Of a DNA stretch of 64,000 bases, positions 1 to 13,697 are shown in pieces. Positions within the stretch are counted from its first letter, which is position 1. Each line of letters starts with the position of its first letter. A program made the translations under genes and the position numbers. A model generated the notes under the pieces. That model was not told the DNA's origin. It made no database searches and saw only the letters and a list, made by a program, of their open reading frames with translations. This DNA comes from Parvularculales bacterium (GTDB taxonomy: Bacteria > Pseudomonadota > Alphaproteobacteria > JAPOUT01 > JBAJNM01), in contig JBAJNM010000001.1 of the NCBI GenBank assembly GCA_036881865.1, positions 86,847 to 150,846 of the forward strand, given 5' to 3'.

Positions 1-590
1 CGAGACGGTCTCGCCCGGCGGAGTGTTTGTTTCATCAAGATGAGACAGGAGTATGGACAGATGCTACCCGGGTTAGGGGTGGGGTAGTACATAGGCGAAG
101 ACTCTTTCTAACGTCTGAGGGTGACAGTTTACGGGGGCAGGATATACTAAGCAGTAGTGTTCAGAGAAGCGGGCGTTCGGTTAAGGGAGAGGCGGTGCCT
201 TTTACTATCCGGTTTCATGTGCATCCGTCATGTCGGGCGTCTTTGGCTGCGGGTGGGCAATCGGTATTGATTGCACCGGAGCATGGGATGGGGTGGCGTT
301 TTATTGCGCGGTGTGGGGAGGTTCCTATTGCTATAACTCTGGAAGGTGGTGTTTATGTGGGGGAGGGTGCGGGGGAACACATTCGTCGAACCCACCAGAT
401 TGTCGTCACAAGCAAGACGCTCTCTAACATACAGTCAGACACGCAGATAATTATAAAATGGATGTTTCAGAAGCTGGAGCGAAGACCTTTTGATAAGGTC
501 GTATCAGCCTCTTCTGAACAGGATGGTTGTCAATTTTCACTTGATTTTGGAGAACCCGACCTGAAAAAAAACAAAAACGCTCAATTTTGA
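1..590 (+). other. G-rich region containing an open frame (TTG at 27; frame stays open back to the window edge); hypothetical, possibly a 5'-truncated gene or non-coding
   Basis: The 564-nt ORF has no in-frame stop upstream to position 3. The translation is Gly/Arg-rich and low-complexity, with no recognisable motifs. The minus strand is closed. Confidence 0.2.
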
Positions 591-722
591 CTAAGAATGA
601 TAAAAGTTCCGGCTATTTGTGCTATAAATCAATAGGTTAGTAAATTAGCTCCTGCTCATTCGACCCGCTCCCACTTTACAACGGTTTTTTGGGGGGACTT
701 AAGTATATAATTCCTTAAGATT
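591..722. repeat. ~130-bp repeat element copy A (TTAAGAAT..TTCCGGC..CAACGGYTTTTTGGG..AAGTATATAATT)
   Basis: About 75% identical over ~125 bp to 5380-5510. It contains the 12-mer AAGTATATAATT at 700-711. Confidence 0.6.
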
Positions 723-775
723 TCATCTCAGCGAGGACTGCGGGGCTTGCCAGCTTTAAGTACCGCAGAGATATA

Positions 776-2533
776 ATGGAGGTGCTTGTGAACGAACATC
801 AATGGGATTTGGTTTTGCGTGGCGGCAATATTGTCGATGGCACAGGTGTTCCACCTTATGTTGGTGATGTAGCTATTTGTGATGGCGTAATCGCTCAGGT
901 CGGTGAGGTATATGGTGTTGCAAAACGTGAGCTAGATGTGACAGGCTATCTGGTGACACCGGGCTTTGTTGACATCCATACACATTATGATGGTCAGGTG
1001 TTGTGGGATCAATGTCTTGCACCTTCATCCTGGCATGGTGTAACGACGGCTGTGATGGGAAATTGCGGTGTTGGTTTTGCGCCCTGCAAGCCCGAAGACC
1101 ATAAGCGTCTAATCAAGCTGATGGAAGGTGTGGAAGATATTCCAGGCGTCGTATTGGATGAGGGCTTACCCTGGAACTGGAAATCATTTCCTGAATACCT
1201 AGATGCGGTTGATATGCGCAATTATGACATTGATATAGCCGCACAACTGCCGCATGGGGCATTACGTCTTTATGTGATGGGTGATCGAGCCGAACGTCTG
1301 GAAAAAGCGACGCCAGATGATATCGAGACAATGGCAAAGATCGCAGCTGAAGCCGTTGAAGCCGGAGCGGTCGGGTTTTCAACATCGCGCACCATCAATC
1401 ACCGCACAAGCGATGGCAATCCAACGCCGTCACTGAAAGCGAGTGAGGATGAGCTGTCGGGGATCGCGATGGCGCTCAAGGAGAAGAACAAAGGTGTCCT
1501 GCAATTCGTGTCCGATTTTGACGATCCGAAGCAGGAAATGGCGATGCTACAAAACGTAGCGCGTGAGTCTGGTCGCCCTCTGTCTGTATCTCTGGCACAA
1601 AGTGACATAAACCCTGATGGTTGGCGGAATCTGCTGAGCTGGCTCTCAGTGTCAAATGATGAAGGCCTTGAGGTACGCGGTCAGGTTGCCGGTCGACCTG
1701 TAGGGATCATGCTGGGGTTTGATGTTACCCTGAACCCATTTGTAGGGTGCCCAACCTATCGTTCATTTGCAAACTTGCCACTGGCGGAAAAAGTATCGCG
1801 CCTGCGCCAAGCGGAAACCCGCTCTCAAATTCTGGAAGAATTTGAGGCAGGTGATTTCCCGGAAGGGCTCCGAATATTCATCAATTTCAATCGTATGTTT
1901 ATCCTCGGTGAACAACCCGACTATGAACAGGAAATTGACCAGAGCATCGGTGCCCGGGCCGTACGCCAAGGCCTTCGCGCCTCTGAGCTTGCTTTCTACG
2001 AAATGCTCAAGCATGACGGCCACGCGATGCTATACTTCCCATTTCTAAATTATGCACAAGGCTCTCTGGAGCCGAGTCTTGAAATGATGCAGCACAAGAA
2101 TACTGTTCTTGGTCTCGGGGATGGAGGGGCACATCTTGGATCAATTTGTGACGCGAGCTTCACGACGCATATGCTAACGTTTTGGACACGGGACCGAACG
2201 CGCGGAGCAAAATTGCCCATAGAAAAAGCCGTTAAGTGGCACAGTCACGATACCGCTGCCGCGGTGGGTCTTTTGGATCGCGGCTTACTGCAATCAGGAT
2301 ATAAGGCAGACATCAACGTTATCGATTATCATGGTCTGACGCTGCACGCGCCGCAAATGGTGCGCGACCTGCCTCACAAAAGCGGTCGATTGATGCAACA
2401 GGCCGATGGCTACAAATACGCGATTGTATCAGGGATCGTAACATATGAAGATGGCGAATGGACCGGGGCTACTCCCGGAAAACTTGTTCGCGGTGCACAA
2501 TCAGTAACCAACGAGCATAGGCGTGTCGCGTGA
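776..2533 (+). CDS. N-acyl-D-amino-acid deacylase (D-aminoacylase), amidohydrolase family
   Basis: 585 aa. Carries the metal-binding motif [12 protein letters not shown] and overall D-aminoacylase-like architecture. Confidence 0.75.
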
Positions 2534-2765
2534 CGCGCTACCAGCCTTGAGAGATTCAGAAGACCCCCCACCAACTCCAAGTATCTAATTCGGGCACTTC
2601 TGTATATAAACCCCCTTTTTCATATTCTTTCTCTAGGCTTTCCCCAATTTCCGCCCTCTCCATCACTAGCCTTAAGAGCCGACGCAACATCAAGAGCGTG
2701 AATTGCCCCCTTGTTGTCTGGGCCCCGACTCGCTAACCTATTGAAAGCTATTTAGGAAGGTACCG

Positions 2766-5294
2766 ATGAAACTGGATTTTGCGACAACGTCGATGCTGGC
2801 CAATATGGCGCTCAATGAAGTGCCACCGCTGAATACGCTGAGCGCCGATGAGGCGCGGCTGGTTTTTGCTGAGATTTACCGTTCTATGCCACCAGGGCCT
2901 GAAAGCGTCAGTAGCGAAGACATTTCCATTGTCGTTGAGGGCGGCGAAATTCGCGGCCGTATTTTGCGCCCGGCCGATGAAGCGCAAGCCGTAATGATTT
3001 ACTATCATGGCGGCGGCTGGGTGATCGGTAATATTGACGATTATGATTTGGTCGGTCGTCATCTAGCCGAAAAAAACAACGCCATTGTGGTGATGATCGA
3101 TTACCGAAAAAGCCCGGAGCACAAATATCCGGTGCCGATGCGGGATTGCTATGCGGCCTTGAATTGGGTGGAAGATAACCGCACAAAAATCGGTGCTGAC
3201 AATCTGCCGCTGATTGTGGCCGGCGATAGCGCGGGCGGCAATTTATCGGCCGTCATGGCGCAAAAAACCGCCGCTGAAAATGGCCCGAAAATCGACTTGC
3301 AGCTATTGATTTATCCGGTGACGGATGGGCGGATGCAAACCGACAGCTTTACCCATGAGGATAAACAACTGTTCCTGACGGCTGAGTTGATGAGCCATTT
3401 CTGGGATCAATATGCCGATGAAAAACAACGTCTGGAGCCCGAAGCCTCGCCCCTCTTGGCGGGTAATCTGGCGGATGTCGCACCGGCTATTGTGCTGACG
3501 GCAGAGTTCGACATTCTGGTTGATGAAGGCAAAGCCTATGCCGATAAGCTGGATGAAGCTGGTAGGCTAGTTGCTTACAAATGTTTTGAAAGGCAAATGC
3601 ATGGCTTTTTCGCCATGCCGGATGCGCTACCGGTCGGCTTTGAGGCGATGGATTGGGCAACCCACGAAATCGCACGTCATATGGCACCGGTCGAGATGGT
3701 TGATGCGGTGGTGGTCGGAGCCGGCTTTTCCGGTATGTATCAATTGCACAAACTGCGCGAAATGGGCTTGTCAGTGAAAGTGTTTGAGGCAGGCGAAGAT
3801 GTTGGCGGCACCTGGTACTGGAACTGCTATCCCGGCGCCCGGGTTGATATTGAAAGCATGGCTTACTCTTTTTCTTTTTCGAAAGAGCTGGAACAGGACT
3901 GGGTGTGGTCGGAAAAATATTCGCCGCAACCCGAGTTACTGCGCTATGCACAACATGTCGCCGACCGGTTTGACTTAAAGCGTGATATTTCTTTCAACAT
4001 GCGTGTCACCAGCGCACATTTTGACGATGACAATAATGAATGGCTGGTCACTACTGAGTGCGGCAAGCGGGTGCGGGCACGCTTTTTAGTGATGGCCTCT
4101 GGCGTTTTATCAGCTGCCAAAACGCCCGATATTGCCGGTCGTGACAGATTTAAAGGCGAGACCTATAGAACCGGCCTGTGGCCGAAAGAAGGGGTAGATT
4201 TTACCGGCAAGCGTGTGGCCGTAATCGGCACTGGTTCGTCAGCCGTGCAGTCTATCCCGCTGATTGCCGAAGAAGCGGAAGAACTGGTGGTTTATCAGCG
4301 CACCGCTGCCTATTCGACACCGGCGCATAACCGACCTTTGATCAATTCCGAGATTGATACGATGAAGACTAATTATGATGCTTACCGGCAAGAGCAGCGC
4401 CGGACCCCGGCCGGTATTGTCAATCCGGAGCGCATGCCGGAGCGTACCATGGACGTGCCGGAAGAAGAACGTCGGCGGCGCTTTGAGCAAGCCTGGGATG
4501 GCGGGCTGCTAACCGGTCTATCGTCCACCTTCTCCGATATACTGGTTAATGAAGAGGCCAATAATGAAGTGTCGGAGTTTATCGGCGACCGCATTCGCGC
4601 GACCGTGAAAGACAAACAAACGGCGGAGGATTTGACGCCGAAAGCCTATCCTTACGGCACCAAGCGACCCTGTATCGATACGAATTATTACGAGACCTAT
4701 AATCGCGACAATGTCTCTCTGGTTAATTTGCAGCGCACGCCGATTGAGATGTTTACCGAAACGGGCATCAAAACCAGCGATGGATTGCGCGAATTTGATG
4801 CAATTGTTTATGCCACCGGTTTTGACGCCATGACCGGTGCGCTGCTACAGGTCGATATTCGTGGTCGCGGTGGGAGGCGTCTGGTTGATGCGTGGATTAA
4901 CGGGCCACGCTCTTACCTAGGTATTGCCATTCACGGCTTCCCCAATCTGTTCACCATTACCGGCCCATCAAGCCCGTCTGTGCTGTCTAATATGCTGGTA
5001 TCGATTGAGCAGCATGTCAATTGGGTGACCGATTGCATTGGCTGGATGCGCGAAAACGGCAAGACGGCGATTGAGCCGAGCGATGCGGCCGAGTGCGAAT
5101 GGGCAGAACACACTGCGCACCTCGCCAGTATGACCTTATTCCCGAAAGCCGATAGCTGGTATATGGGGGCCAATATGCCGGGCAAACCGCGTATGTTCCT
5201 TGCCTATGTCGGTGGTGTCGGCGCCTATCGGATGATATGCGATCAGGTTGCCGCCAATAATTATTACGGCTGTGAGTTTACACCTAAGGATTAG
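2766..5294 (+). CDS. Fusion protein: N-terminal alpha/beta-hydrolase (HSL-type esterase/lipase) + C-terminal Baeyer-Villiger (flavin-containing) monooxygenase
   Basis: The N-terminal half has YYHGGGWVIGN (HGGG oxyanion motif) and GDSAGGN (GxSxG). The C-terminal half has FAD GxGxxG (VVVGAGFSG), a BVMO fingerprint-like FKGETYRTGLWP, and NADP GxGxxA/G (VIGTGSSA). It is a single uninterrupted 842-aa ORF. Confidence 0.8.
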   Translation: MKLDFATTSMLANMALNEVPPLNTLSADEARLVFAEIYRSMPPGPESVSSEDISIVVEGGEIRGRILRPADEAQAVMIYYHGGGWVIGNIDDYDLVGRHLAEKNNAIVVMIDYRKSPEHKYPVPMRDCYAALNWVEDNRTKIGADNLPLIVAGDSAGGNLSAVMAQKTAAENGPKIDLQLLIYPVTDGRMQTDSFTHEDKQLFLTAELMSHFWDQYADEKQRLEPEASPLLAGNLADVAPAIVLTAEFDILVDEGKAYADKLDEAGRLVAYKCFERQMHGFFAMPDALPVGFEAMDWATHEIARHMAPVEMVDAVVVGAGFSGMYQLHKLREMGLSVKVFEAGEDVGGTWYWNCYPGARVDIESMAYSFSFSKELEQDWVWSEKYSPQPELLRYAQHVADRFDLKRDISFNMRVTSAHFDDDNNEWLVTTECGKRVRARFLVMASGVLSAAKTPDIAGRDRFKGETYRTGLWPKEGVDFTGKRVAVIGTGSSAVQSIPLIAEEAEELVVYQRTAAYSTPAHNRPLINSEIDTMKTNYDAYRQEQRRTPAGIVNPERMPERTMDVPEEERRRRFEQAWDGGLLTGLSSTFSDILVNEEANNEVSEFIGDRIRATVKDKQTAEDLTPKAYPYGTKRPCIDTNYYETYNRDNVSLVNLQRTPIEMFTETGIKTSDGLREFDAIVYATGFDAMTGALLQVDIRGRGGRRLVDAWINGPRSYLGIAIHGFPNLFTITGPSSPSVLSNMLVSIEQHVNWVTDCIGWMRENGKTAIEPSDAAECEWAEHTAHLASMTLFPKADSWYMGANMPGKPRMFLAYVGGVGAYRMICDQVAANNYYGCEFTPKD

Positions 5295-5404
5295 AATCTG
5301 GCACACCATATTCACGAAACGTTACTATTAAGAATTAGAATTTGGCACAGCATCCGGTTTTATCTGGGTCTTTTTGCGCATTAAGAATTAGAAAATTTCC
5401 GGCC
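5289..5404. repeat. Three TTAGAAT-type repeat units (5289-5307, 5327-5351, 5380-5404) forming the left end of the mini-island
   Basis: Units are GGATTAGAATCTGGCACACC / ATTAAGAATTAGAATTTGGCACAGC / ATTAAGAATTAGAAAATTTCCGGCC. Their reverse complements recur at 7850-7907. Confidence 0.6.
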
Positions 5405-5510
5405 ATTTGTTATATAAACCAATAAGTTAGCTAATTAGCCCTTGGTTGTTTGGCACGTTTCCGTTTTGCAACGGCTTTTTGGGAAATTATATACTTGAGG
5501 CCTAATTTTC
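5380..5510. repeat. ~130-bp repeat element copy B
   Basis: Aligns with 591-722. It contains the reverse complement of AAGTATATAATT at 5486-5497. Confidence 0.6.
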
Positions 5511-5988
5511 TTGGAGAACATTATATACACTACTAGGTGCTCATTTTGACGGCTATACCAGCGAGGGGCTGTTGAAAGCAAGCCCTACTTCATGAAGCCA
5601 CTACGATTTCTTCTTCAAGATCTATAGTCGACCTTTGCCGAGAACGGCTATAACCTCAACATTCTGTGCGCCGTCGATACCTTTGATGAAGAGGAAGAAA
5701 TAGATCTCGCCGAGGTACGGGCCGAAATCTGCGCCTGCCTGCGCGACCATCGGAAAAGGTCTATGGGTGTGATGAATCCACGCATCTTCAGCGATAGGAG
5801 GCAGAACGCCCAAAATTTGTGTCAACCATGAGAATCATCACAAGTTTCGCCGTTTTTTTATGCCAATACCATCAACACATACAAAAATTGTGCCAATCAA
5901 AATAATTGTCACAAATTTTGCCATTTTTTGTTACAATGATCGTCAATAGACACAAGTTTGACTCAATTTTGTTACAGAGAGAAAAGCA

Positions 5989-7098
5989 ATGAACACGTCG
6001 TACGCACAACAGTTAAAAGCTCTGCCACCGCAGGTTAACCTTGAAACGGTGGAGGTTTACAAGGCGCTGGCGGCGGCAAATCGAGCTTTGGGGGAGTTGA
6101 AAGGCAAGGCTTTGACCCTCCCCAATCAGAACATTCTAATTGATACGCTGTTCTTGCAGGAAGCGCTGGCCAGCTCCGAGATTGAAAATATAGTAACTAC
6201 CCAAGACGAAGTATTTCGGGCGGACCTATTCGCTGATACAGGCCCCGTGGAAGCCAAAGAGGTCACCCGCTACCGTGATGCCATGAAACTAGGTTATAAC
6301 TCATGGTGCGAAAACGGTTTTATCAGCGAGAACATGTTGATTGAGATGTTTCGCATCCTCAAACAGCGCAATGACGGATATCGCACAACGCCCGGCACGG
6401 TGCTACGCAATGCGCGGGGGGAAACGGTCTATACGCCGCCGCAAGATGCACAAGATATTGTGCGGCTGATGCGCGATTTGGAAGCCTTCATTAACGCAGA
6501 ACCGGACGATCTGGACCCGCTCATCCGCATGGCGCTCATCCATCATCAATTTGAAAGTATACACCCCTTCCCAGACGGTAACGGACGGGTAGGGCGGATG
6601 CTGAATGTGTTGTATCTGACCCACGCAGGTTTGCTGGATGCGCCCATTTTATATTTAAGCCGCGCCATTAACCACACCAAACCCGATTACTACCTTCTAT
6701 TGCGGGCAGTGCGCAACGAAGGCGTATGGCAAGAATGGGTTATCTATATGCTTGATGCAGTGACGGAAACGGCATTCTCCACCCTGCGTTTGGTGGAAGG
6801 CATACGTGATTTGATGCGCCAGACTAAGATTCGCTTGCGTGAAGAAGGACTCTACACGCAGGAATTGTTAAACAATCTGTTTCGCCATCCCTATACGCGC
6901 ATAGCTCCTGTCGCGCGAGATTTGAGGGTCCACTACAACACTGCCGCCAGCCGTCTGAAACAATTAGCCACCAAGGGCTTTGTTCAAGAGGTGAGAGAGG
7001 GGCGGAATAATTATTACATCAACGAACCTTTGGTAGCCTTGTTCGTAAGCGTATCAGGAGACGATAATCTGCAGGAGCATGATAAAAAAAGGTCCTGA
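5989..7098 (+). CDS. fic: Fic family protein (Fic/DOC; AMPylase-type), class II with intramolecular inhibitory motif
   Basis: Fic motif HPFPDGNGRVGR is present. The inhibitory [S/T]xxxE[G/N] motif (SSEIEN) lies N-terminal of the core. The C-terminus has a wHTH-like tail. Confidence 0.85.
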   Translation: MNTSYAQQLKALPPQVNLETVEVYKALAAANRALGELKGKALTLPNQNILIDTLFLQEALASSEIENIVTTQDEVFRADLFADTGPVEAKEVTRYRDAMKLGYNSWCENGFISENMLIEMFRILKQRNDGYRTTPGTVLRNARGETVYTPPQDAQDIVRLMRDLEAFINAEPDDLDPLIRMALIHHQFESIHPFPDGNGRVGRMLNVLYLTHAGLLDAPILYLSRAINHTKPDYYLLLRAVRNEGVWQEWVIYMLDAVTETAFSTLRLVEGIRDLMRQTKIRLREEGLYTQELLNNLFRHPYTRIAPVARDLRVHYNTAASRLKQLATKGFVQEVREGRNNYYINEPLVALFVSVSGDDNLQEHDKKRS

Positions 7099-7133
7099 AG
7101 ATACAAAAATATTATCTAAAAGAGGGCGACTCG

Positions 7134-7385
7134 ATGAGAAAAAACTATGCACAGGAGTATATTAATAACCTCGTATCTGAAGGCCGATATTGTGTATCAA
7201 CCGAGGGAGCGCGGGAAACTCTGGGCGTCACCACAGATACCATCAGGAATGCGCTTTTTTGGTGGTGTGTCGCTATAGCAGTATTTGAACTGGTCCTCTA
7301 TACGGGAGTTTTGGGCGGTCTGGCTTTCATTGTTGCCCCGCATATTGTCTCCTCTTTCATCCTCACTCTGCCTCAGGTATCTTGA
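7134..7385 (+). CDS. small hypothetical protein: N-terminal wHTH-like segment + C-terminal transmembrane helix
   Basis: A good RBS (AGAGGG) sits 8 nt upstream of the ATG. The C-terminal hydrophobic stretch is WWCVAIAVFELVLYTGVLGGLAFIV. The ORF is 83 aa. Confidence 0.4.
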   Translation: MRKNYAQEYINNLVSEGRYCVSTEGARETLGVTTDTIRNALFWWCVAIAVFELVLYTGVLGGLAFIVAPHIVSSFILTLPQVS

Positions 7386-7843
7386 AGCAAACGATGGCTA
7401 ACGTAGATACTTCGCACGGATATTTTGGTATTCGAATACCGAAGATTGAATTTTCTGAATGGTACGCACGGGATGATGTAAAAAACAATCCTCATAGAAA
7501 CCAACCAGGGGTTTATATTATTGCGCGATTTGTTCATAAACCAGAAGGAACGGCAGATTATAATGCGAAAGAAATACTGTGCGTTGGTGAAACGACGAGG
7601 GATATTCACACACGGTTGAAGCAGTTTTTCAGAGCAGCTAAAAACGGAAAAACAAATCACAATCCGGGTAAAAAATTTTTTCGAAAATTCTCTGGTAATC
7701 TTGACAATATTTACGTTGCTAGTTTTTCACCTGAGCTTGAGGAAGAACATTGTCTGGACCCCTTTATTCGTTACCTAGAGCGTAAGTTAATCTTGGAATA
7801 TGCCATTAAGCACGGCTCGATTCCATTTTGTAACAGTGAGTGA
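7382..7843 (+). CDS. GIY-YIG nuclease domain-like protein (start TTG 7382 or ATG 7394)
   Basis: GVYII ... ILCVGETTRDIHTRLKQFF resembles the UvrC-type GIY..YVGKAxDLRKRLxxYF block with an insertion. The downstream E..LILEY...N block is also present. Confidence 0.45.
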   Translation: MKQTMANVDTSHGYFGIRIPKIEFSEWYARDDVKNNPHRNQPGVYIIARFVHKPEGTADYNAKEILCVGETTRDIHTRLKQFFRAAKNGKTNHNPGKKFFRKFSGNLDNIYVASFSPELEEEHCLDPFIRYLERKLILEYAIKHGSIPFCNSE

Positions 7844-7849
7844 ATATGG

Positions 7850-7907
7850 ATTCTAATCCTTAATGGTAAAATTCTAGTTCTTAATAGTAAATTCTAATTC
7901 TTAGCTA
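7850..7907. repeat. Three tandem ~21-bp repeats (ATTCTAATCCTTAATGG / ATTCTAGTTCTTAATAG / ATTCTAATTCTTAGCTA) forming the right end of the island
   Basis: They are the reverse complement of the left-end units. Exact 13-mers TAAGAATTAGAAT and TAAGGATTAGAAT are shared. Confidence 0.6.
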
Positions 7908-7934
7908 TAAACGACAACGGCTTTGTTTCTTAGG

Positions 7935-8010
7935 TGGTGGAGCCGAGGGGAATCGAACCCCTGACCTCAGCATTGCGAACGCTGCGCTCTCCCAACTGAG
8001 CTACGGCCCC
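7935..8010 (-). tRNA. tRNA-Ala (anticodon CGC)
   Basis: Reverse complement is GGGGCCGTAGCTCAGTTGGGAGAGCGCAGCGTTCGCAATGCTGAGGTCAGGGGTTCGATTCCCCTCGGCTCCACCA. It folds as a cloverleaf with a G3:U70 Ala identity pair, anticodon loop TTCGCAA, and an encoded CCA. Confidence 0.9.
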
Positions 8011-11795: not shown

Positions 11796-11811
11796 CGCTT
11801 ATACTCTTTTA

Positions 11812-11831
11812 TTGGTAATTATATACTTTAG
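11812..11831 (-). repeat. 20-bp repeat CACTAAAGTATATAATTACC (minus orientation), 17 bp upstream of argG; contains a TATAAT-like -10
   Basis: A perfect inverted copy lies at 13546-13565. Confidence 0.7.
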
Positions 11832-11845
11832 TGAATCCATTCTGT

Positions 11846-12199
11846 TCACTTCTTACCCGCCATCGTCCGTATAACCCCCGCCACATGTTTTAAGGCCGTC
11901 GGAGTTAGTTTCGGAAGCAACAGGGCGACCCGCCACTGTTGGGGCGTCAGAGGGTTCTTCACCGTTCCGATGGCAGGCTCTAGAATGTCTCCGACCGGTA
12001 CGCCGTAAATTCCGGCAATCTTTATAAGCCGGTCCAGAGGGATGGTTCCCTTGCCATGCTCGTAATTATGGAGTTGCGAGGTTCCTATACCCAGTTTTCC
12101 CACCACCTGACTCAATGTCAGGTCAAGAGCCTCCCGGTGCTCCTGGAGCAGGTGGCCGATCTCCTTGTCAATGGCTTTTTGGTTTTTCGTCTTTTTCAT
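11846..12199 (-). CDS. XRE-family helix-turn-helix transcriptional regulator
   Basis: 117 aa. The HTH segment is LSQVVGKLGIGTSQLHNYEHGKGTIPLDRLIKIAGIYGVPVGDIL. Confidence 0.7.
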   Translation of the reverse strand: MKKTKNQKAIDKEIGHLLQEHREALDLTLSQVVGKLGIGTSQLHNYEHGKGTIPLDRLIKIAGIYGVPVGDILEPAIGTVKNPLTPQQWRVALLLPKLTPTALKHVAGVIRTMAGKK

Positions 12200-12299
12200 C
12201 GTCGTCCAGTTTCTCCACGGGGGGAACCAGTATCACCTCGCGGGCGAATTTCGCCATGTCGTCCAGCGTCGGCAGATCGTCTTTGTCATCGTCTCTCAT
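12168..12299 (-). CDS. Possible 43-aa highly acidic small ORF overlapping the start of the XRE gene
   Basis: Minus-strand ATG at 12299 gives MRDDDKDDLPTLDDMAKFAREVILVPPVEKLDDDEKDEKPKSH. This is not in the ORF track because it is under 60 aa. Confidence 0.2.
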   Translation of the reverse strand: MRDDDKDDLPTLDDMAKFAREVILVPPVEKLDDDEKDEKPKSH

Positions 12300-12368
12300 C
12301 TGATGTTCCCTTCTTGCTCTGTTACTTTTGAGCAAACTATTACATTATTAGAAACCTCAATCTATGTC

Positions 12369-12809
12369 TCAATGATACTGGGATTCTTGAAGCAACCAGT
12401 AGACTTCGGTGTCTTTAAGATCTTCATTGTCCTGTGCCCGCTCAAAAGGTGTTTTTCCTTTTTTGTCCTTCGCTTGCGGATCGGCACCATTTTTCAGCAA
12501 AGATTCCAATACCTCTGGGTGTTTGCTCCCTGTTTCCGCTACATGAAGAGGCGTTAAACCACCCTCAGAACGGGCCTCTATATCTGCACCATGTTCCAGT
12601 AGCAGTTTTACCACCGCTGGTGTTTCGCTGTAGCCTGTCGCAAAATGCAAAGGCGTAGCACCACCCTCAAGAGCAGCCTCTACATCGACCACGGTGGCTG
12701 TCTTCCAAAATGTGTCACTTAGTAACACATTATCCTCTTGTGCATGAAGTGTAACTGGTGCGTAGACCAGTAAAAACTGTACGCAAAGGAAAGCGGTTAT
12801 TGGTTTCAT
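12369..12809 (-). CDS. Secreted ankyrin-repeat protein (paralog A)
   Basis: Signal peptide, the family N-motif NVLLSDTFWKTATVVDVEAAL, TPLH ankyrin repeats, and a C-terminal ..LLQESQYH. Confidence 0.8.
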   Translation of the reverse strand: MKPITAFLCVQFLLVYAPVTLHAQEDNVLLSDTFWKTATVVDVEAALEGGATPLHFATGYSETPAVVKLLLEHGADIEARSEGGLTPLHVAETGSKHPEVLESLLKNGADPQAKDKKGKTPFERAQDNEDLKDTEVYWLLQESQYH

Positions 12810-12860
12810 GTTATTCCCGAACGCCAGTTATTTTATCATTTTCACAATAGCTCAAAAATA

Positions 12861-13358
12861 CTAATATCCTACAACTCCAAGAATTACATCAAAGTCCAAC
12901 AACTGTTTATAACGTTGCAATTCCTTGACTACATCTTTCTGAGTTACAAGGCTAAATCCAGCAACTTTGCCTAATGTTTCATTTGAAATTGCAAAAGCCG
13001 CCGGTATACCAACAGATTTCGCTAATTCTCTGAATTCCTTTTTACATCTTTTAGTTAGAGTGCTTGTCTGCAAATCCGAAACATCTTTACCTAGGGCCCC
13101 CATGAGGGTTTTATCAACAGGGGTTATCACCCCTTTAATTTCTGGGTGTTGTGCAAAAGCCAGAACAAACCATTTCATCAACGAGTTTTTTTCTTGCTCG
13201 TTAATAGAATGAAATATGCAGGAAGATAGCTTTTCGGTAGGTGTTTGTGAATATGCAGGAGAGTTTGATAGCAACAACGTGCTTAATAGAAATAATGAGA
13301 TAAAAACGGCTTCTATCGTTGTTTTGTTTTTAATCATGAATATTTTTCCTCTTCTCAT
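12861..13358 (-). CDS. Hypothetical secreted protein (signal peptide), AT-rich gene
   Basis: 165 aa with an N-terminal hydrophobic leader (AVFISLFLLSTLLLS) and no recognisable domain. Its composition is foreign-looking. Confidence 0.45.
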   Translation of the reverse strand: MRRGKIFMIKNKTTIEAVFISLFLLSTLLLSNSPAYSQTPTEKLSSCIFHSINEQEKNSLMKWFVLAFAQHPEIKGVITPVDKTLMGALGKDVSDLQTSTLTKRCKKEFRELAKSVGIPAAFAISNETLGKVAGFSLVTQKDVVKELQRYKQLLDFDVILGVVGY

Positions 13359-13545
13359 TGTGGGACGTTTATGCTGATTGTTCGCCAGAGGCGATTAAAT
13401 TTCCTTCAAAGTAGCAACTCTCCCACGGAAGTTTACTCATGTAAGATGCTCCTTAGAGAAATAACATGATTGAAGCATACTGCGATTACCAATACTCAAA
13501 ACCGGTAAAAACGGGGTGAAGCAAGGTTTATTACGGTTTGGTCAC

Positions 13546-13565
13546 TAAAGTATATAATTACCCTT
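13546..13565 (+). repeat. 20-bp repeat CACTAAAGTATATAATTACC (plus orientation), ~130 bp upstream of the CitE-like gene
   Basis: A perfect inverted copy of 11812-11831. Confidence 0.7.
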
Positions 13566-13697
13566 TTATTACTCTGTGTACTTTTGCCACTATAGGTAAA
13601 AGCCCACTTAGCGCAAGGTGGGGAACAACCCCGCTCTTGCGGCTTGCCTACGGACTTTATAAGGTGCAAGGAAACGGCATATTAGCAAGGAGATTTT

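Follow-up and report, generated by a model that had tools for sequence, protein, structure and literature searches.

A probable non-autonomous Tn7-like element carrying a predicted SoFic defence gene beside tRNA-Ala in a Parvularculales genome

The 64,000-nt stretch of DNA analyzed here (hereafter the window; positions 86,847 to 150,846 of contig JBAJNM010000001.1, assembly GCA_036881865.1) comes from a lone metagenome-assembled genome (MAG) of the Parvularculales (proteins MEG9860964, MEG9860966, and MEG9860968), for whose housekeeping proteins the collections searched contain no close relatives. Between a monooxygenase gene and a tRNA-Ala gene it contains a 2,646-bp segment, positions 5271-7916, which is probably a non-autonomous or defective Tn7-like transposon (TnsB/TniA DDE family) that arrived by transposition. 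The segment is bounded by inverted arrays of a 22-bp site, by matching tips, and by a perfect 5-bp duplication; its removal restores the host gene; and it carries a Fic-family gene and other cargo, with no transposition genes.

End sites, borders, and the interrupted monooxygenase gene

The borders, the sites inside them, and the two flanking genes are as follows (strand in parentheses; scores are from a weight matrix built on the six 22-bp units):

2766-5294 (+), host gene: esterase-Baeyer-Villiger monooxygenase fusion, 842 amino acids (aa; Pfam Abhydrolase_3 plus FMO-like/Pyr_redox_3)
5266-5270, target-site duplication, left copy, ACGGC; the only symmetric-offset 5-mer direct repeat beside TG..CA
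5271-5395 (+), spaced ("left"-type) end with three separated 22-bp sites, beginning with TGT at 5271-5273
5277-5298 (+), site L1, TTTACACCTAAGGATTAGAATC, 30.4 bits; monooxygenase stop codon inside
5321-5342 (+), site L2, GTTACTATTAAGAATTAGAATT, 32.8 bits
5374-5395 (+), site L3, TTGCGCATTAAGAATTAGAAAA, 25.4 bits
7849-7916 (-), overlapping ("right"-type) end with three 22-bp sites, facing the tRNA and ending in ACA at 7914-7916
7849-7870 (-), site R3, TTTACCATTAAGGATTAGAATC, 33.2 bits
7870-7891 (-), site R2, TTTACTATTAAGAACTAGAATT, 32.6 bits
7890-7911 (-), site R1, TTTATAGCTAAGAATTAGAATT, 30.5 bits
7917-7921, target-site duplication, right copy, ACGGC (from sequence)
7922-7933 (+), former 3' terminus of the monooxygenase gene, now orphaned: TTT GTT TCT TAG (F-V-S-stop), in frame after excision
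7935-8010 (-), tRNA-Ala(CGC), the presumed attachment gene, intact and with CCA encoded (ARAGORN, Rfam)

A first-pass annotation of the window had described six repeat units, the three on the right being reverse complements of those on the left and sharing exact 13-mers with them. All six were found in the places given, apart from two unit edges (the first starts at 5288 rather than 5289, and the third ends at 5398 rather than 5404). The repeated unit is longer than the 13-bp core described earlier: 22 bp, with the consensus TTTACNATTAAGRATTAGAAT(Y), in three copies on the + strand (5277-5395) and three on the - strand (7849-7911), all oriented inward. The core, TAAGRAYTAGAAW, starts at 5285, 5329, and 5382 (+) and at 7850, 7871, and 7891 (-). 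One variant, TAAGGATTAGAAT, occurs at 5285-5297 (+) and 7850-7862 (-), and another, TAAGAATTAGAAT, at 5329-5341 (+) and 7891-7903 (-); the remaining two are TAAGAATTAGAAA at 5382-5394 (+) and TAAGAACTAGAAT at 7871-7883 (-). The ends are not symmetrical in layout: site starts are 44 and 53 bp apart at the left, where the sites are separated, and 20 and 21 bp apart at the right, where neighbors overlap by 1-2 bp.

Within the window, the 22-bp unit is not a generic dispersed repeat. The core, with as many as two mismatches allowed, matches seven times in 64 kb against 1.47 expected, a count given by none of 100 shuffles; the seventh, a two-mismatch match at position 6133 within the Fic gene, is noise. 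By weight matrix, the six sites score 25-33 bits and the runner-up across the 64 kb scores 11.5 bits, so that no further comparable site is present there.

When the left end is compared with the reverse complement of the right end, the similarity reaches a common tip (left TGTGAGTTTACACCTAAGG..., right TGTCGTTTATAGCTAAGA...). The mobile unit is accordingly 5271-7916 and not 5289-7934, as had been proposed; it starts 17-18 bp earlier, inside the monooxygenase open reading frame (ORF). Target-site duplications had been suggested as something to look for, and a perfect 5-bp direct repeat, ACGGC, does lie immediately outside both tips. When the flanks were shuffled, 12% of trials gave a 5-mer direct repeat at near-symmetric offset relative to the outermost sites, but only 0.04% gave one at symmetric offset together with TG...CA tips (P = 4e-4).

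The monooxygenase gene now runs across the left tip. Its last seven codons (CEFTPKD) and its stop (5271-5294) are element sequence, and the stop codon, TAG at 5292-5294, falls inside L1, as the first-pass annotation had noticed. Removal of 5271-7921 in silico yields an 838-aa monooxygenase ending ...NNYYGFVS, encoded by a predicted pre-insertion (empty-site) sequence reading ...AATAATTATTACGGCTTTGTTTCTTAGGTGGTGGAGCC.... The nearest 119 monooxygenase homologues are 839 aa long, with the C-terminus ...G-F-[DE]-V-[NHQ]: the junction G is followed by F in every one of them, and V is second-to-last in 117. The present C-terminus, GCEFTPKD, is unlike that of any of the 119. The segment is also compositionally foreign, with a G+C content of 0.448 vs. 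0.50-0.52 in the flanks.

Both junctions are found in separate raw-read (Logan) contigs of SRR27962760, at 99.98% and 100% identity: contig L083 spans window positions 1-5777, with the left junction, and contig L089 spans 6411-7963, with the right. The arrangement is therefore not an artefact of MAG assembly. Given the shared tips, the 5-bp duplication, and the restored ORF, transposition is the only economical reading, and insertion of a transposon with a 5-bp duplication can be accepted with high confidence.

The repeats could in principle have nothing to do with mobility, and instead be bound by a local regulatory protein as operators or similar sites, or have arisen by chance from a heptamer-like motif of low complexity. 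The 13-bp core does resemble a doubled heptamer (TAAGAAT-TAGAAT), and most database matches to two-unit patterns are tandem arrays of heptamers in unrelated phyla. At 22 bp, however, the units of the element are not tandem heptamers; they are confined to the borders of a segment of distinct composition and are oppositely oriented at the two; and neither regulation nor chance accounts for the tips, the 5-bp duplication, or the restored ORF. An explanation of this kind is most improbable.

The left end has some features of its own. A further motif, TGGCACA(C/G)CAT, follows both L1 and L2, giving 32-nt direct repeats (5278-5309 and 5322-5353) that are 81% identical; it is missing from the right-end sites. 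It could be the site of an accessory protein, or a relic of the evolution of the ends. The 16-20 nt past L1 (5306-5325) match the sequence just inside R3 (7830-7849) at 80%. Two terminator-like hairpins on the + strand, at 5352-5369 and 5461-5474, lie just inside this end, and could keep transcription of the monooxygenase gene from running on into the element.

The neighboring tRNA gene and the likeness to Tn7

The segment had initially been described as a mini-island at the tRNA 3' end, ending 1 bp from the CCA of tRNA-Ala. A mobile element does stand beside the tRNA gene, but it is not integrated into it: 18 bp separate its right tip from the tRNA 3' end, the insertion point is 14-18 bp downstream of the tRNA, and no 3' segment of the tRNA is duplicated. 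This is therefore a transposon insertion downstream of the tRNA rather than a tRNA-integrated island. An Rfam search found nothing besides the tRNA.

The 3' ends of tRNA genes are classic integrase targets, and in lambda-type attachment (att) sites the arm-type sites are present in multiple copies that may be inverted between attL and attR. The position beside the tRNA and the multi-copy inverted repeats might suggest a decayed island, in which the repeats would be arm-type sites of a lost tyrosine integrase and the ends attL and attR. Against this, the element stops 18 bp before the tRNA, without overlapping it; the only candidate for a copy of the tRNA 3' end at the far border is a weak one, a 15-nt, 80% match within the monooxygenase ORF; the borders are TGT/ACA tips with a 5-bp duplication; and no integrase gene or fragment is present. 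With neither a tRNA-derived direct repeat nor an integrase gene, a tyrosine-integrase island was rejected as very unlikely.

Multi-site ends of this kind have well-studied counterparts. Arrays of ~20-22-bp TnsB sites just inside both ends are common to Tn7, Tn5053, Tn5090/Tn402, Tn552, and the CRISPR-associated transposons (PMC8649781). In prototypic Tn7, one end has four 22-bp sites in partial overlap, and the sites of the other are spaced (PMC11406308). In Tn7-like elements, the end with overlapping sites is the one closest to the att gene, which is read by a TniQ/TnsD protein (PMC11406308); the tips are typically TGT/ACA (PMC11406308, PMC11014353), and the target duplication is 5 bp (PMC11014353, PMC9881144). 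The area just downstream of tRNA genes is a frequent safe attachment site (PMC8649781, PMC11406308), and the cargo is rich in defence systems (PMC8649781).

The Parvularculales element has the cis-acting part of this design: inverted arrays of predicted 22-bp sites, spaced at one end and overlapping at the other, TGT...ACA tips, and a 5-bp duplication. The end with overlapping sites is the one facing tRNA-Ala. The earlier suggestion of a Tn7- or Mu-like end architecture is thus supported by the tips, the duplication, the restored monooxygenase C-terminus, and the orientation of the overlapping end, and the ends are likely to belong to the TnsB/TniA lineage. The genes are another matter: there is no TnsB-type transposase, TnsC-type AAA+ ATPase, or TniQ/TnsD selector. 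Lacking all trans-acting genes, the element can therefore only be a non-autonomous or defective derivative, and not an autonomous member of the Tn7-like group.

The closest parallels in overall layout are the Tn7-like elements that target tRNA genes via TnsD/TniQ, such as PmcCAST/Tn7744, McCAST/Tn7575, and non-CRISPR relatives. These share the site arrays, the asymmetry of the ends, the tips, and the 5-bp duplication, and likewise lie a short distance downstream of an intact tRNA gene and carry defence cargo. Unlike PmcCAST/Tn7744 and McCAST/Tn7575, the element described here is 2.6 kb long and has no tnsA/B/C, no tniQ/tnsD, and no CRISPR parts. It also differs from the characterised tRNA-targeting systems (~29-33 bp) in lying 14-18 bp after the tRNA, in having ends that match none in the collections searched, and in its alphaproteobacterial host. 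The position and orientation are what would be expected if a TniQ/TnsD-type selector at the tRNA gene had recruited a TnsC-type ATPase; the chances that insertion was directed by the tRNA gene appear about even.

Transposition genes, further copies, and empty sites

Several observations weigh against a Tn7-like assignment. No tnsA, tnsB, tnsC, tniQ, or tnsD gene or fragment was found in 5271-7916 by Pfam, NCBIfam, PADLOC, and PHROGs searches and inspection of six-frame ORFs, and a Pfam scan of ten further window ORFs gave no transposition genes either. Searches of 185,579 species genomes, JGI metagenomes, IMG/VR, PLSDB, and phage records, by exact match to a degenerate pattern or by blastn, gave neither another copy of the ends nor any related end, nor was an empty-site allele found in the collections searched. 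With a single insertion, specificity for the tRNA is inseparable from a chance landing, and the distance of 14-18 bp is shorter than the ~29-33 bp of characterised TnsD systems, where TnsD-directed insertion occurs 29±1 bp past the tRNA (PMC9881144), or 30-33 nt in another system. Finally, repeated transposase sites are not peculiar to the Tn7 group: IS21-family ends hold them as well (L1/L2, R1/R2), and the family makes 5-bp duplications (IS5376) and has no target specificity (PMC10122671).

The last point raises the possibility of a genuine DDE-transposon insertion by some other transposase and AAA+ ATPase lineage (IS21 IstA/IstB, a Mu-like phage remnant, or a Tn552-type element), with the position beside the tRNA coincidental. 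TGT/ACA tips do occur beyond Tn7-like elements (PMC11406308), and no tns gene ties these ends to TnsB. IS21 elements resemble the present one in having repeated end sites, 5-bp duplications, TG/CA-type tips, and a DDE transposase with an AAA+ partner. They are described, however, with two repeats per end ~23 bp apart (PMC10122671), symmetrically arranged and with no target preference, as opposed to three per end, spaced at one and overlapping at the other, with the overlapping end facing the tRNA. They also carry istA/istB rather than passenger genes, and the element has passengers and no ist genes. For a Mu-like remnant, phage genes would be expected, and none is present. Origin from a lineage other than TnsB/TniA is unlikely, though better placed than an integrase or regulatory explanation.

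The statement in the first-pass annotation that no recombinase lies between the repeats was borne out by domain and family searches and by six-frame ORFs: besides the tns genes, no transposase, istA/B, Mu-type gene, integrase, or phage gene is found within 5271-7916. The scan elsewhere in the window covered ten of the ORFs with at least 150 aa: nine in the range 430-1,253 aa, and a single one of 165 aa. Nine of the ten are housekeeping genes; the other matches no family.

The search for copies relied on exact matches to a degenerate pattern, which diverged relatives would escape. A two-unit pattern found 43 loci in the 185,579 species genomes. These were rejected as heptamer tandem arrays, mostly in Bacteroidales (23 were inspected, and the remainder judged by unit spacings that are multiples of 7 bp), and by blastn none resembled the window. 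An alphaproteobacterial locus (L008) has just two units and lacks both a second end and mobile genes; it was put down to chance. A more specific pattern gave 37 loci in the JGI metagenomes, all AT-rich tandem or low-complexity repeats. A scan of IMG/VR gave no matches. Against plasmids, blastn with the whole element found only the Fic gene, among the matches listed; the right end alone gave nothing meaningful against plasmids and phages. A literature search with the repeat sequence yielded nothing relevant, and the supplement to the survey of Benler et al. has no entry for this lineage, tRNA-Ala, or SoFic.

In MAGs of rumen Bacteroidales/Prevotellaceae, as well as in other phyla, tandem arrays of 7-bp units (such as ACTAAGG/ACTAGAA and TTAGAAT) are frequent just 5' of start codons. 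Such arrays (loci L001-L043 and L045-L081) were the chief source of false matches to the core.

An empty site was sought from both flanks. The nearest monooxygenase homologues, at 85% identity, are from PS1/Parvibaculales and non-syntenic, with a rhodanese gene, and not a tRNA, after them; the predicted pre-insertion monooxygenase is absent from a collection of 15 billion proteins. On the other side, FolD relatives with measured identity reach at most 63%. Two distant relatives (L082 and L087) keep the order tRNA-Ala(CGC)-YggT-FolD; on the 3' flank of the tRNA they have spacers of 170 and 310 bp and then unrelated genes, with no island. These flanks are compatible with an insertion here, but they are not true empty sites and are uninformative about the junction.

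The monooxygenase fusion gene may itself have been acquired horizontally, to judge by its 85% identity to the PS1/Parvibaculales genes (L044), compared with no more than 63% for core genes such as folD against any relative with measured identity, and by the lack of a conserved neighborhood.

Cargo, possible mechanism, and a second element

Between the ends are two cargo genes, two fragments, and a repeat-rich region:

5628-5828 (+), start-less ORF fragment, 67 codons, with no significant family match
5811-5976, repeat-rich region upstream of SoFic: direct repeats, an inverted repeat, and a promoter-like site
5989-7098 (+), SoFic, a Fic-family AMP-transferase, 369 aa (PADLOC SoFic, E = 3.8e-113; Pfam Fic_N, Fic, SoFic-like_C)
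7134-7385 (+), truncated AbiEi-like remnant, 83 codons (PADLOC AbiEi, E = 1.3e-4, profile positions 2-39 of 258)
7394-7843 (+), putative stand-alone GIY-YIG-type nuclease, 149 aa (small uncharacterised family, conserved residues, predicted fold)

Two motifs can be read in the SoFic translation, one catalytic (HPFPDGNGRVGR) and one inhibitory (SSEIEN); the Fic_N inhibitory helix, the HxFx(D/E)GNGRxxR pattern, and the SoFic-like C-terminal domain are all present. The match to the NCBIfam model ProtAdlyltaseSoFic has E = 1.4e-101, and its 340 bits are under the model cut-off of 550 bits. PADLOC counts SoFic among single-gene anti-phage systems, and the gene is predicted to be defence cargo of this kind.

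The 149-aa protein belongs to a family with 300 representatives at E <= 1e-3, in which G39, Y41, G65, R74, H89, E129, and N147 are invariant and Y63 nearly so; this pattern fits a GIY-YIG nuclease. Pfam GIY-YIG matches are weak and below threshold, and were seen in nine of 40 family members. An AlphaFold2 model has a pLDDT (predicted local distance difference test) score of 93.8, and in a Foldseek comparison with the PDB its best matches were Hpy188I, the I-TevI catalytic domain, and R.Eco29kI, none of them at E <= 0.001. In the AbiEi-like ORF, resemblance to the N-terminus of the AbiEi antitoxin is confined to residues 5-42. The ORF fragment at 5628-5828 is probably also a gene remnant, and with two such remnants the interior has therefore undergone deletions.

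In the repeat-rich region there are three ~32-nt direct repeats, at 5833, 5904, and 5945, and an imperfect 37-nt inverted repeat (5811-5847 and 5884-5920) around a promoter-like site at 5908-5937 with a TG-extended -10. The repeats just 5' of the SoFic start may be operator sites for its expression.

The closest SoFic homologues, ~70% identical (L084, 10001-11101; L085, 10001-11104), are single genes amid unrelated housekeeping genes, and no Tn7 or other mobile-element genes were found within 10 kb of either. This suggests that SoFic moves as a very small unit.

If the Tn7-like assignment is right, the insertion might have come about as follows. A TnsB-type transposase made elsewhere would have bound the three 22-bp sites at each end and paired the ends, cleaving at the TGT/ACA tips and joining them to the target with a 5-bp stagger that left the ACGGC duplication. 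A TniQ/TnsD-type selector on the tRNA-Ala gene would have recruited a TnsC-type ATPase, fixing the distance of strand transfer downstream. The outcome would have been a convergent monooxygenase gene minus three codons and plus seven element-encoded ones, with its stop in L1, and an untouched tRNA. Any further movement would require all proteins to be supplied in trans by an autonomous relative; alternatively, the element could be an immobile derivative that has kept its ends but lost internal sequence. The first-pass annotation had likewise offered mobilisation in trans or decay. The perfect duplication and the good preservation of the sites are compatible both with delivery as a small cassette and with later internal deletion of a full element.

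Within the TnsB/TniA superfamily, the closest documented precedent is the tni-deleted class 1 integrons, to which this element appears analogous. In0 and In2 are tni-deleted derivatives of Tn402 that have kept both ends and can be mobilised by the tni genes of Tn502 in trans, with a 5-bp duplication (PMC3575428). In0, In2, and In5 (Tn5053/Tn402 branch) share with the Parvularculales element their superfamily, both inverted ends, the 5-bp duplication, the carriage of cargo only, and the possibility of mobilisation in trans. They differ in having tni remnants, an integrase/attI platform, 25-bp ends, plasmid and transposon res targets, and antibiotic-resistance cargo. Laboratory mini-Tn7 has the same design (ends with TnsB sites, plus cargo, with helper proteins) and inserts beside a conserved gene in one orientation, but it was engineered from E. 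coli Tn7 and targets glmS, while the element here is natural and its end sequences are unrelated. Mobile insertion cassettes (MICs) and cassettes flanked by MITEs (miniature inverted-repeat transposable elements) likewise have passenger genes but no transposase between their transposon-type inverted ends, and their mobilisation is presumed to occur in trans. Known MICs, however, derive from simple insertion sequence families with a single terminal inverted repeat, and lack multi-site Tn7-type ends.

A more speculative extension is that the element is a natural "mini-Tn7": a defence cassette parasitising the transposition and tRNA-homing machinery of an autonomous, possibly CRISPR-associated, Tn7-like element in the same marine alphaproteobacterium. 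This is doubtful on present evidence. If it were true, hitch-hiking cassettes would form a hidden layer of Tn7-type defence-gene traffic, unseen by surveys anchored on tnsB; large surveys of Tn7-like elements do begin from tnsB, and ends-only elements are invisible to them. Read as a Tn7-like element, the segment shows that ends-only cassettes occur in nature, that end architecture alone suffices to detect them, and that they can bring predicted genes for phage defence to a safe location next to a tRNA. Should an autonomous partner with the same 22-bp sites exist, the pair could make a compact natural system for trans-mobilisation and tRNA homing from a poorly sampled marine lineage. For annotation, the insertion accounts for both the 2.6-kb low-G+C patch and the aberrant monooxygenase C-terminus.

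The window holds another element without a transposase, at 11806-13570, just upstream of argG. It has perfect 21-bp inverted repeats, GGTAATTATATACTTTAGTGA, at 11814-11834 and 13542-13562, which are unique in the window, and is flanked by an 8-bp direct repeat, CTTTTATT, at 11806-11813 and 13563-13570. The 1,749-bp segment set off by the inverted repeats is low in G+C (0.36-0.41) and has three small ORFs on the - strand, for a helix-turn-helix-like protein, an ankyrin-like protein with a signal peptide, and a secreted protein of 165 aa without a Pfam match. The whole has the appearance of a mobile insertion cassette derived from another family of transposons.

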